Origin: Escherichia coli
Lineage (GTDB): Bacteria; Pseudomonadota; Gammaproteobacteria; Enterobacterales; Enterobacteriaceae
Direction: 5' to 3' (one strand)
Assembly: GCF_017348835.2 (NCBI RefSeq)
Contig: NZ_CP071375.1
Length of the DNA stretch: 64,000 nt
In this document: positions 27,301 through 30,300 of the stretch, piece by piece
Numbering within the stretch: the first letter of the stretch is position 1
Layout: each line of letters opens with the position of its first letter
Position numbers: made by a program

Positions 27301-30300
27301 CCAACCGGCGAGCACAACAGCCCGCGCTCAAAGAGCTTCTTTGATGGTGTGAAGAAGTTTTTTGACGACCTGACCCGCTAACCTCCCCAAAAGCCTGCCC
27401 GTGGGCAGGCCTGGGTAAAAATAGGGTGCGTTGAAGATATGCGAGCACCTGAAAAGTGGCGGGGAGCACTCCCCGCCGTTGCTCTTACTCGGATTCGTAA
27501 GCCGTGAAAACAGCAACCTCCGTCTGGCCAGTTCGGATGTGAACCTCACAGAGGTCTTTTCTCGTTACCAGCGCCGCCACTACGGCGGTGATACAGATGA
27601 CGATCAGGGCGACAATCATCGCCTTATGCTGCTTCATTGCTCTCTTCTCCTTGACCTTACGGTCAGTAAGAGGCACTCTACATGTGTTCTGCATATAGGG
27701 GGCCTCGGGTTGATAGTAAAATATCACTCGGGGCTTTTCTCTATCTGCCGTTCAGCTAATGCCTGAGACAGATAGCCTCAAGCACCCGCCGCTATTATAT
27801 CGCTCTCTTTAACCCATTCTGTTTTATCGATTCTAATCCGGAAGACGCCTCGCATTTTTATGGCGTAATTTTTTAATGATTTAATTATTTAACTTTAATT
27901 TATCTCTTTATCGCAATTATTGACGACAAGCTGGATTATTTTTGAAATATTGGCCTAACAAACATTACCGACTGACAACAAATTAATTATTACTTTTCCT
28001 AATTAATCCCTCAGAAATCCTCACCTTAAGCTATGATTATCAGGGCTTAGGGGCACCCGTCAGCGCTTACAGCCGTCAAAAACGCATCTCACCGCTGATG
28101 GCGCAAATCCTTCTATAGATCGTAAAAAACGAATTATTCCTACACTATAATCTGATTTTAACGATGATTCGTGCGGGGTAAAATAGTAAAAACGATCTAT
28201 TCACCTGAAAGAGAAATAAAAAGTGAAACATCTGCATCGATTCTTTAGCAGTGATGCCTCGGGAGGCATTATTCTTATCATTGCCGCTATCCTGGCGATG
28301 ATTATGGCCAACAGCGGCGCAACCAGTGGATGGTATCACGACTTTCTGGAGACGCCGGTTCAGCTCCGGGTTGGTTCACTCGAAATCAACAAAAACATGC
28401 TGTTATGGATAAATGACGCGCTGATGGCAGTATTTTTCCTGTTAGTCGGTCTGGAAGTTAAACGTGAACTGATGCAAGGATCGCTAGCCAGCTTACGCCA
28501 GGCCGCATTTCCAGTTATCGCCGCTATTGGTGGGATGATTGTTCCGGCATTACTCTATCTGGCCTTTAACTATGCCGATCCGATTACCCGCGAAGGGTGG
28601 GCGATCCCGGCGGCTACTGACATTGCCTTTGCACTTGGTGTGCTGGCGCTGTTGGGAAGTCGTGTTCCGTTAGCACTGAAGATCTTTTTGATGGCTCTGG
28701 CTATTATCGACGATCTTGGGGCCATCATTATCATCGCATTGTTCTACACTAATGACTTATCGATGGCCTCTCTTGGCGTCGCGGCTGTAGCAATTGCGGT
28801 ACTCGCGGTATTGAATCTGTGTGGTGTACGCCGCACGGGCGTCTATATTCTGGTTGGCGTAGTGTTGTGGACTGCAGTGTTGAAATCGGGGGTTCACGCA
28901 ACCCTGGCGGGGGTAATTGTCGGCTTCTTTATTCCTTTGAAAGAGAAGCATGGGCGTTCTCCAGCGAAGCGACTGGAGCATGTGTTGCACCCGTGGGTGG
29001 CGTATCTGATTTTACCACTGTTTGCATTTGCTAATGCTGGCGTTTCACTGCAAGGCGTCACGCTGGATGGCTTGACCTCCATTCTGCCATTGGGGATCAT
29101 CGCTGGCTTGCTGATTGGCAAACCGCTGGGGATTAGTCTGTTCTGCTGGTTGGCGCTGCGTTTGAAACTGGCGCATCTGCCTGAGGGAACGACTTATCAG
29201 CAAATTATGGCTGTGGGGATCCTGTGCGGTATCGGTTTTACTATGTCTATCTTTATTGCCAGCCTGGCCTTTGGTAGCGTAGATCCAGAGCTGATTAACT
29301 GGGCGAAACTCGGTATCCTGGTCGGTTCTATCTCTTCGGCGGTAATTGGATACAGCTGGTTACGCGTCCGTTTGCGTCCATCAGTTTGACAGGACGGTTT
29401 ACCGGGGAGCCATAAACGGCTCCCTTTTCATTGTTATCAGGGAGAGAAATGAGCATGTCTCATATCAATTACAACCACTTGTATTACTTCTGGCATGTTT
29501 ATAAAGAAGGTTCTGTGGTTGGCGCAGCGGAGGCGCTTTATTTAACACCACAAACCATTACCGGACAGATTCGGGCGCTGGAAGAGCGCCTGCAAGGCAA
29601 ATTATTTAAGCGCAAGGGACGTGGTCTCGAGCCCAGCGAGCTGGGGGAGCTGGTCTATCGCTATGCCGATAAAATGTTCACCTTGAGCCAGGAAATGCTG
29701 GATATCGTGAACTATCGCAAAGAATCCAATTTATTGTTTGACGTTGGCGTGGCTGATGCACTTTCCAAACGTCTGGTCAGTAGCGTGCTGAATGCTGCAG
29801 TAGTAGAAGGCGAGCCAATTCATCTTCGCTGCTTCGAATCCACCCACGAAATGCTGCTGGAGCAATTAAGCCAGCATAAACTGGATATGATCATTTCCGA
29901 CTGTCCGATAGATTCTACGCAGCAGGAAGGTCTGTTCTCCGTGAGAATTGGCGAATGTGGCGTGAGTTTCTGGTGTACAAATCCACCGCCGGAAAAACCG
30001 TTCCCAGCTTGTCTGGAAGAACGGCGGCTTTTGATTCCTGGGCGACGTTCAATGTTAGGGCGCAAATTGCTTAACTGGTTTAACTCCCAGGGATTAAACG
30101 TAGAAATCCTTGGCGAGTTTGATGATGCCGCGTTGATGAAAGCTTTTGGTGCGATGCACAATGCAATCTTCGTTGCCCCAACGCTTTATGCATATGACTT
30201 TTATGCCGATAAAACTGTCGTAGAAATTGGTCGCGTCGAGAATGTGATGGAAGAGTACCATGCTATTTTTGCTGAGCGGATGATTCAGCACCCGGCGGTA

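Follow-up and report, generated by a model that had tools for sequence, protein, structure and literature searches.

The 64,000-nucleotide stretch of Escherichia coli DNA analysed here (the window) carries dnaJ, the hokC toxin locus on the opposite strand with its overlapping mokC frame and its sokC antisense region, nhaR, an island of fimbrial and effector genes, and rpsT. The coordinates of these features are listed in Table 1. We aligned the window by blastn with K-12 MG1655 (NC_000913, positions 1–50,000 and 4,621,000–4,641,652, with annotation). The whole window is collinear with MG1655 from 4,629,584 across the origin and on to 47,544, with an identity of 97.8–99.0% per block and SNPs numbering in the hundreds. 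Breaks in the alignment are limited to the sites of the K-12 insertion sequences IS186A and IS1A and to three small intergenic repeat differences; the trpR–yjjX and lspA–fkpB spacers differ from MG1655 in repeat copies. An initial sequence-only reading of the window had claimed, on the basis of K-12 coordinates, that gene-to-gene offsets are constant, and the alignment bears this out with every indel listed: the offset is 12,084 and then 12,083 from thrL to dnaJ, 10,734 from nhaA to nhaR, 16,487 from rpsT to lspA, and 16,450 from fkpB to caiE. The same reading had named the two IS sites and the island as the main structural differences. The breaks at the IS186A and IS1A sites agree with this, but the missing IS1 and the island prove to be one locus rather than two, and the three small differences have to be added.

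Table 1. Features of the window and positions at which its alignment with MG1655 is interrupted.
Feature	Position in window	Strand	Remark
Small intergenic difference	1041–1163		ERIC-like insert
Small intergenic difference	3629–3662		From indel list against MG1655
dnaJ	26251–27381	+	MG1655 14168–15298 plus offset 12,083; ORF ends at 27381
dnaJ–hokC spacer (hokC mRNA 3' UTR)	27382–27484	-	103 bp, uninterrupted
Terminal hairpin GCCUGCCCACGGGCAGGC, then UUUU	27389–27410	-	Read from sequence; stem present in RNA fold
fbi (fold-back inhibitory) element, predicted	27424–27435	-	Complementary to mRNA 5' end (tac)
Perfect hairpin GGCGGGGA-GCAC-TCCCCGCC	27458–27477		8-bp stem in predicted mRNA fold
IS186 consensus target GGGGAGCACTCCCC	27461–27474		Within the hairpin
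Bases duplicated on insertion, GGAGCACTCC	27463–27472		10 bases, within the hairpin
Alignment break at IS186A	27473/27462		MG1655 15390/16728, both IS186A ends (blastn)
hokC stop codon	27485–27487	-	
mokC/hokC frames	27485–27694 (hokC 27485–27637)	-	mokC annotated in related genomes
hokC mRNA 5' leader/sokC antisense region	27635–27787	-	Rfam sok, RF01794
sokC	about 27686–27744	+	MG1655 coordinates plus offset 10,734
nhaR	29449–30354	+	MG1655 18715–19620 plus offset 10,734
Putative fimbrial tip adhesin gene, frameshifted	30393–31353	-	Annotated 'frameshifted' in F2_81 and PE164
Alignment break at IS1A	30530/37037		MG1655 19795/20564, both IS1A ends (blastn)
Island interior	30531–37036		6,506 bp; IS1A (768 bp) in its place in MG1655
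Fimbrial usher	31366–33816	-	Pfam Usher 4.1e-168, PapC_N, PapC_C
Periplasmic fimbrial chaperone	33829–34512	-	Pfam PapD_N 2.2e-41, PapD_C
Major fimbrial subunit	34562–35095	-	Pfam Fimbrial 4.7e-09
espX1, T3SS effector of pentapeptide-repeat type, 473 aa	35397–36818	-	Annotated in O157:H7 PV15-279, F2_81 and PE164
rpsT, first conserved gene past the island	37302–37565	-	MG1655 20815–21078 plus offset 16,487
Small intergenic difference	42207–42229		From indel list against MG1655

According to the sequence-only reading, neither IS1 nor IS186 ends should lie within the window, and four types of search returned nothing beyond chance. No IS1 or IS186 DNA was found in the 64 kb by megablast or by blastn with word sizes of 11 and 7, no match to the InsL, InsA or InsB transposases was found there by tblastn, and a fuzzy search allowing up to five mismatches detected none of the 23-bp terminal repeats of the two elements. 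Nor did we find a mobile element of any other kind in the window, given that its non-island part is collinear with IS-free MG1655 sequence and that the island ORFs carry no transposase domains. The best chance-level IS match was a stretch of 23 nt to IS1 at 17655–17677 (E = 0.003), located within a REP-like repeat.

The dnaJ and hokC stop codons are separated by a spacer of 103 bp, exactly the length given by the sequence-only reading. HokC (50 aa) is identical to its MG1655 counterpart, and MokC (69 aa) differs from that of MG1655 by one residue; together they form a Hok-family toxin ORF with an overlapping mok frame. A full-length match to the Rfam sok model (bit score 119.8, gathering threshold 59; E = 1.8e-28) covers the mRNA leader and the antisense region, and its extent places the mRNA 5' end near 27787. 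A further Rfam candidate, a Hatchet ribozyme at 28100–28176, was rejected as a chance match (bit score 18.7, gathering threshold 51; E = 0.91).

We folded the 402-nt hokC RNA extending from 27787 to 27386, which gave a z-score of -6.0 against shuffled sequences. In both the MFE and the centroid folds, the 5' end GGGUGCUUGA is predicted to pair with UUCAACGCACCC in the spacer (plus strand 27424–27435), joining 5' GGGUGC... with ...GCACCC. This thermodynamic prediction on one sequence points to a long-range pairing between a 5' tac and a 3' fbi element in the full-length hokC mRNA. The 3' fold-back element is described as blocking translation of full-length hok mRNA until the 3' end is processed (PMC9841398). 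By analogy with the hok/sok system of plasmid R1, the spacer may therefore have a regulatory role in hokC control, in which fbi would fold back on the mRNA 5' end and make the full-length message untranslatable. The hokC of the window, a type I toxin gene, is chromosomal, unlike the plasmid-borne R1 system, but shares with it the 50-aa Hok-family toxin, the overlapping mok frame, the Sok antisense region (RF01794), the predicted helix that closes the 5' on the 3' end, and a 3' hairpin with UUUUCAGG behind it. The terminal hairpin of the hokC transcript, at 27393–27410 in the fold, abuts the dnaJ stop codon and, with the UUUU run behind it, is likely the hokC transcription terminator. A simple promoter and terminator scan called neither this hairpin nor the one containing the IS186 target; neither satisfied its T-run rule, the run behind the terminator being only four T. 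An intact hokC 3' UTR is nevertheless not equivalent to a demonstrably active one, since no post-segregational killing was reported for the IS-free chromosomal hokC of ECOR24 (bioRxiv 10.1101/2025.08.07.668861).

The spacer also contains a perfect GC hairpin that marks the site of IS186A in K-12. Its central sequence GGGGAGCACTCCCC, of the form G4-N6-C4, is the sole G4-N3-6-C4 match in the 64 kb, where chance would give 1.65; the consensus target of IS186 is reportedly G≥4, N3–6, C≥4. In MG1655, the dnaJ–hokC spacer measures 1,452 bp, equal to the sum of the 103 bp seen here, 1,339 bp of IS186 from inverted repeat to inverted repeat, and 10 bp of target duplication. The MG1655 junctions read GGCGGGGATCACTCC directly followed by CATAAGCGC where the 1,339-bp IS186 begins, and GCGCTTATG directly followed by GGATCACTCCCCGCCG where it ends. 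Taking out IS186 and one of the two copies of GGATCACTCC, the 10-bp duplication, yields GGCGGGGATCACTCCCCGCC; the window has GGCGGGGAGCACTCCCCGCC at 27458–27477, i.e., the MG1655 site in its unoccupied form with one central T-to-G change at 27466. Only one other SNP, at 27452, distinguishes the 3' UTR of the window from that of MG1655. MG1655 thus does carry IS186 after dnaJ, as the sequence-only reading had it, and the element can be placed inside the hairpin corresponding to 27458–27477, where it is flanked by the 10-bp duplication.

In K-12, IS186 follows the hokC stop codon at a distance of 19 bp, such that the predicted fbi element and the likely terminator are cut off from the transcript. 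This agrees with the proposal that IS186 downstream of gef/hokC disrupts fbi (PMC3562002). The presence of IS186A downstream of gef/hokC in K-12 has long been recognized (Poulsen et al., 1989; Pedersen and Gerdes, 1999; summarised in PMC3562002), and the site in the window agrees with it in locus, target hairpin, and position of the 10-bp duplication. The window differs in having the IS-free hokC allele found in wild (ECOR) strains, with G instead of T at 27466 and the SNP at 27452.

We surveyed this site in 5,426 complete E. coli genomes using a 403-bp probe spanning the empty site and separate probes for each type of occupied junction. The dnaJ–hokC site was empty, i.e., contiguous, in 3,814 genomes (70%), occupied by IS186 in the MG1655 orientation in 677 (12.5%), and occupied in the opposite orientation in 927 (17%). 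A match was obtained in 5,425 genomes, of which these three states account for 5,418, and the occupied genomes total 1,604 (~30%), among them clinical, pig, chicken and frog isolates. All eight occupied genomes inspected (MG1655, TUM18780, SCU-104, PK8277, PE164, ET979, NT1N34 and B27) have IS186 at the same position with a 10-bp duplication, which is either GGATCACTCC or GGAGCACTCC; both orientations are represented among them. Empty sites with the T allele, found in the B2 strain ABU83972 and in O157:H7, are identical to the pre-insertion site reconstructed from MG1655. An empty site on its own is simply the majority state. The absence of IS186 from the window excludes K-12, while its presence would not have proved K-12.

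These data are consistent with a mechanism in which IS186 would have inserted into the GC hairpin, with a 10-bp duplication, in K-12 and in about 30% of sequenced E. coli. Given the distinct combinations of allele and orientation, at least three independent insertions have probably occurred at this site, which is still being hit: the T allele in plus orientation, the T allele in minus orientation, and the G allele in plus orientation, the last of these in a strain one SNP from the window. A more speculative suggestion, to which we give little weight, is that the hairpin in the hokC 3' UTR acts as a natural and still active IS186 hot spot whose occupancy may reflect selection for releasing hokC from fold-back control, or for silencing it, and not target preference alone.

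The window is matched best by F2_81 and PE164, both isolated from pigs. The window is 99.98% identical to F2_81 over 50 kb (10 mismatches), and the dnaJ–hokC site of this strain is empty, with a junction identical to that of the window. In PE164, which differs from the window by one SNP in 25 kb, the G-allele site is nevertheless occupied by IS186, flanked by the duplication GGAGCACTCC. The nhaR–island junction is 100% identical to that of O157:H7 genomes; assignment of the window itself to O157:H7 was rejected, as it is only 98.8% identical to this group over 18 kb, compared to 99.98% for F2_81.

That its nearest relative is occupied shows a very recent change within the clade of F2_81, PE164 and the window, and raises the alternative that IS186 was once present in the lineage of the window and was then excised precisely, restoring a single 10-bp target. 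However, empty sites form the 70% majority, extend to distant phylogroups (B2, O157:H7), and bear no scar, and the site is empty in two members of the clade, the window and F2_81, as against one occupied relative, PE164. Insertion of an IS into a hot spot is, moreover, a far more frequent event than precise excision. We consider excision very unlikely on these grounds; a precise event would leave identical sequence, and within this clade insertion is the probable, not the certain, course. An originally empty site, into which IS186 inserted in other lineages, remains our preferred reading.

The second difference from K-12 lies between nhaR and rpsT. As previously noted from the sequence, nhaR runs straight into the fimbrial operon, with a gap of 38 bp between the end of nhaR and the end of the first fimbrial gene. 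The usher, the PapD-like chaperone and the fimbrial subunit lie in one cluster and by their Pfam domains make up a chaperone-usher operon. The putative tip adhesin gene is not intact: a run of eight A at about 31055–31062, compared to seven in O157:H7, constitutes a 1-bp insertion that splits this 319-codon gene, and the gene is annotated as a pseudogene in both F2_81 and PE164. The espX1 ORF at the far end of the island shows a weak Pentapeptide_4 match in Pfam. GC content across the island is 28–45%. In the island-free B2 genome ABU83972, nhaR and rpsT are 95 bp apart, and the segment specific to the window relative to this genome spans about 30345–37248 (~6.9 kb). The island was acquired horizontally at some point, being low in GC and absent from B2 genomes.

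This island corresponds to the fimbrial/espX1 module of non-B2 E. coli, with which it shares position, low GC content, and the gene order adhesin, usher, chaperone, major subunit and espX1. Across the island region the window is ~98.8% identical to O157:H7 PV15-279; in O157:H7, the nhaR–rpsT module is O-island 1, or fimbrial 'loc1'. The window differs from the non-B2 module in its frameshifted adhesin; K-12 has only the two edges and IS1A. That the region around nhaAR gains and loses modules, among them hokC, sulfatase, fimbrial and T3SS-effector ones, has already been published (Lescat et al., 2014; PMC4182557).

As the sequence-only reading stated, MG1655 has an IS1 after nhaR. This element, IS1A, sits exactly at the gap left by the 6,506-bp island interior, and the window is without IS1. 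Island-specific sequence still flanks IS1A in MG1655, with 186 bp remaining at the left edge and 212 bp at the right. The left remnant includes the final 138 bp of the adhesin gene (30393–30530), which lie beside the element, and RefSeq annotates this remnant as a "fimbrial family protein" in K-12-type genomes. IS1A in MG1655 lacks a target duplication, with flanks of GTAATTGCT and TACCTCAAT. The retention of both edges, together with the absence of a target duplication, indicates that the island was once present in K-12 and that its interior has since been lost. The deleted form at nhaR–rpsT is thus that of K-12, and "no IS1" and "island" are one structural difference. In the proposed mechanism, an IS1-associated deletion would have removed the central 6.5 kb of the island from K-12, with IS1A remaining in its place. 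Among the 5,426 complete genomes, intact island junctions were found in 3,654 (left) and 3,641 (right), IS1A junctions in 559 (left) and 564 (right), and neither type in about 1,205.

The converse order of events, namely that K-12 is ancestral at the nhaR locus with IS1 in a short spacer and that the island was inserted later into the lineage of the window, draws on the low GC of the island and its absence from B2 genomes, which do imply horizontal acquisition at some point. It is nonetheless highly improbable, since MG1655 keeps both island edges around IS1A, a truncated 3' portion of the adhesin gene among them, with no target duplication at the element, a pattern of deletion and not of later insertion. 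There is next to no chance that the missing IS elements are an assembly artefact in which repeats were collapsed or skipped: IS copies are classic trouble spots of short-read assemblies, but assemblers break contigs at such copies and do not make a perfect single-copy target, the complete genome of F2_81 has an identical empty junction, which is also contiguous in each of the complete genomes scored as empty, and the IS1 locus of the window holds 6.5 kb of real, annotated genes with no gap.

Taken together, the window very probably derives from a natural, non-K-12 E. coli and represents the unoccupied ancestral state at both K-12 IS loci. We infer that the underlying events were insertion and deletion in other lineages and not excision or acquisition in that of the window. 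The claim that this is not an MG1655-type chromosome is supported: the window has neither of the two K-12 IS copies and is only ~98–99% identical to MG1655. Each trait by which an MG1655-type chromosome can be recognized is lacking, i.e., IS186A in plus orientation, IS1A replacing the island interior, and near-identity to MG1655.

The value of these results is chiefly for annotation. The window can be treated as wild-type and non-K-12, with the IS186A and IS1A of K-12 as derived states, and the short nhaR–rpsT region of K-12 as a deletion remnant of a fimbrial/espX1 island. By the same analogy with hok/sok, the intact spacer would give this strain a complete hokC regulatory 3' end that is absent from K-12. 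Every element has a published counterpart, including the IS186 of K-12 gef/hokC, the preference for GC-palindrome targets, hok fold-back control, and the fimbrial/espX1 module by nhaR; this is known biology and current understanding is unchanged. Only the genome-wide frequency and the two-orientation occupancy of the putative hokC IS186 hot spot are mildly new. A literature search for a two-orientation IS186 polymorphism at the hokC site found no specific description.

Another IS186 hot spot is reported in the lon promoter. This site likewise offers a GC-rich palindromic target that is hit recurrently at one position and in either orientation. The two targets differ in context, that at lon being a promoter and that at hokC a hairpin in the 3' UTR of a toxin mRNA, unoccupied in the window. 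The population counts at the hokC site provide a small but useful datum on IS186 site preference.

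The two insertion-sequence markers of K-12 are not strictly linked, since strain 720632 (NZ_CP025842.1), a human isolate, combines an IS1A junction of the K-12 type at nhaR-rpsT with an IS186 at the hokC site that is reversed in orientation relative to MG1655. The IS186 copies at this site also vary in other genomes. In strain B27 (NZ_AP027424.1), an IS1B insertion nested within the element truncates it. In both PE164 and ET979, the transposase gene is annotated as frameshifted, with a 1-bp length difference; these frameshifts may reflect either real decay or homopolymer sequencing error.

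A frameshift is present in the putative fimbrial adhesin gene of the window, where it results from a run of eight adenines (A8). The same gene in O157:H7 PV15-279 contains an A7 run and is intact over 319 codons, while the annotations of F2_81 and PE164 carry the same frameshift as the window. This may mean that the gene is a pseudogene, or that its expression is phase-switched by strand slippage.

Between mokC and nhaA, the B2 strain ABU83972 contains a different module, which the window lacks and which comprises an ompK-like gene, a sulfatase gene, and a hypothetical gene. The nhaA-nhaR segment of this strain shares only 89% identity with the window, in agreement with the published divergence between B2 and non-B2 strains.

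Several smaller differences from MG1655 were observed between genes. The trpR-yjjX spacer differs in the copy number of a REP-type repeat, with approximately 70 bp of MG1655 missing from the window; a separate segment of the window shows 81% similarity, in inverted orientation, to this MG1655 region. In the lspA-fkpB spacer, one 23-bp stretch of the window, which lies inside a REP-like palindrome (GCCGGATGCGGCCTACA…TGTAGGCCGCATCCGGC), takes the place of 61 bp in MG1655. An ERIC/IRU-like repeat and, upstream of rpsT, a short insertion are also listed below.

Coordinates of the features described, in the window or in extracted loci with their own numbering
Feature	Source	Position	Detail
ERIC/IRU-like repeat	window	1041-1163	ettA-slt spacer; 123 bp; contains …CGCTCACCCCAGTCACTTACTTCTGTAAGCTCCTGGAGA…; not in MG1655
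trpR-yjjX spacer	window	3629-3662	missing: MG1655 4633121-4633190
Inverted similar segment	window	17641-17755	
Adhesin gene	window	30393-31353	minus strand
A8 run	window	31055-31062	
Insertion versus MG1655	window	37177-37190	14 bp, GCAAGAACCTGCAA; in the island right edge that MG1655 retains
lspA-fkpB stretch	window	42207-42229	
mokC-nhaA module	ABU83972 (L006)	2252-5914	
IS186 with nested IS1B	B27 (L012)	1772-3201	
IS186 transposase gene	PE164 (L008)	7528-8641	
IS186 transposase gene	ET979 (L010)	1656-2767
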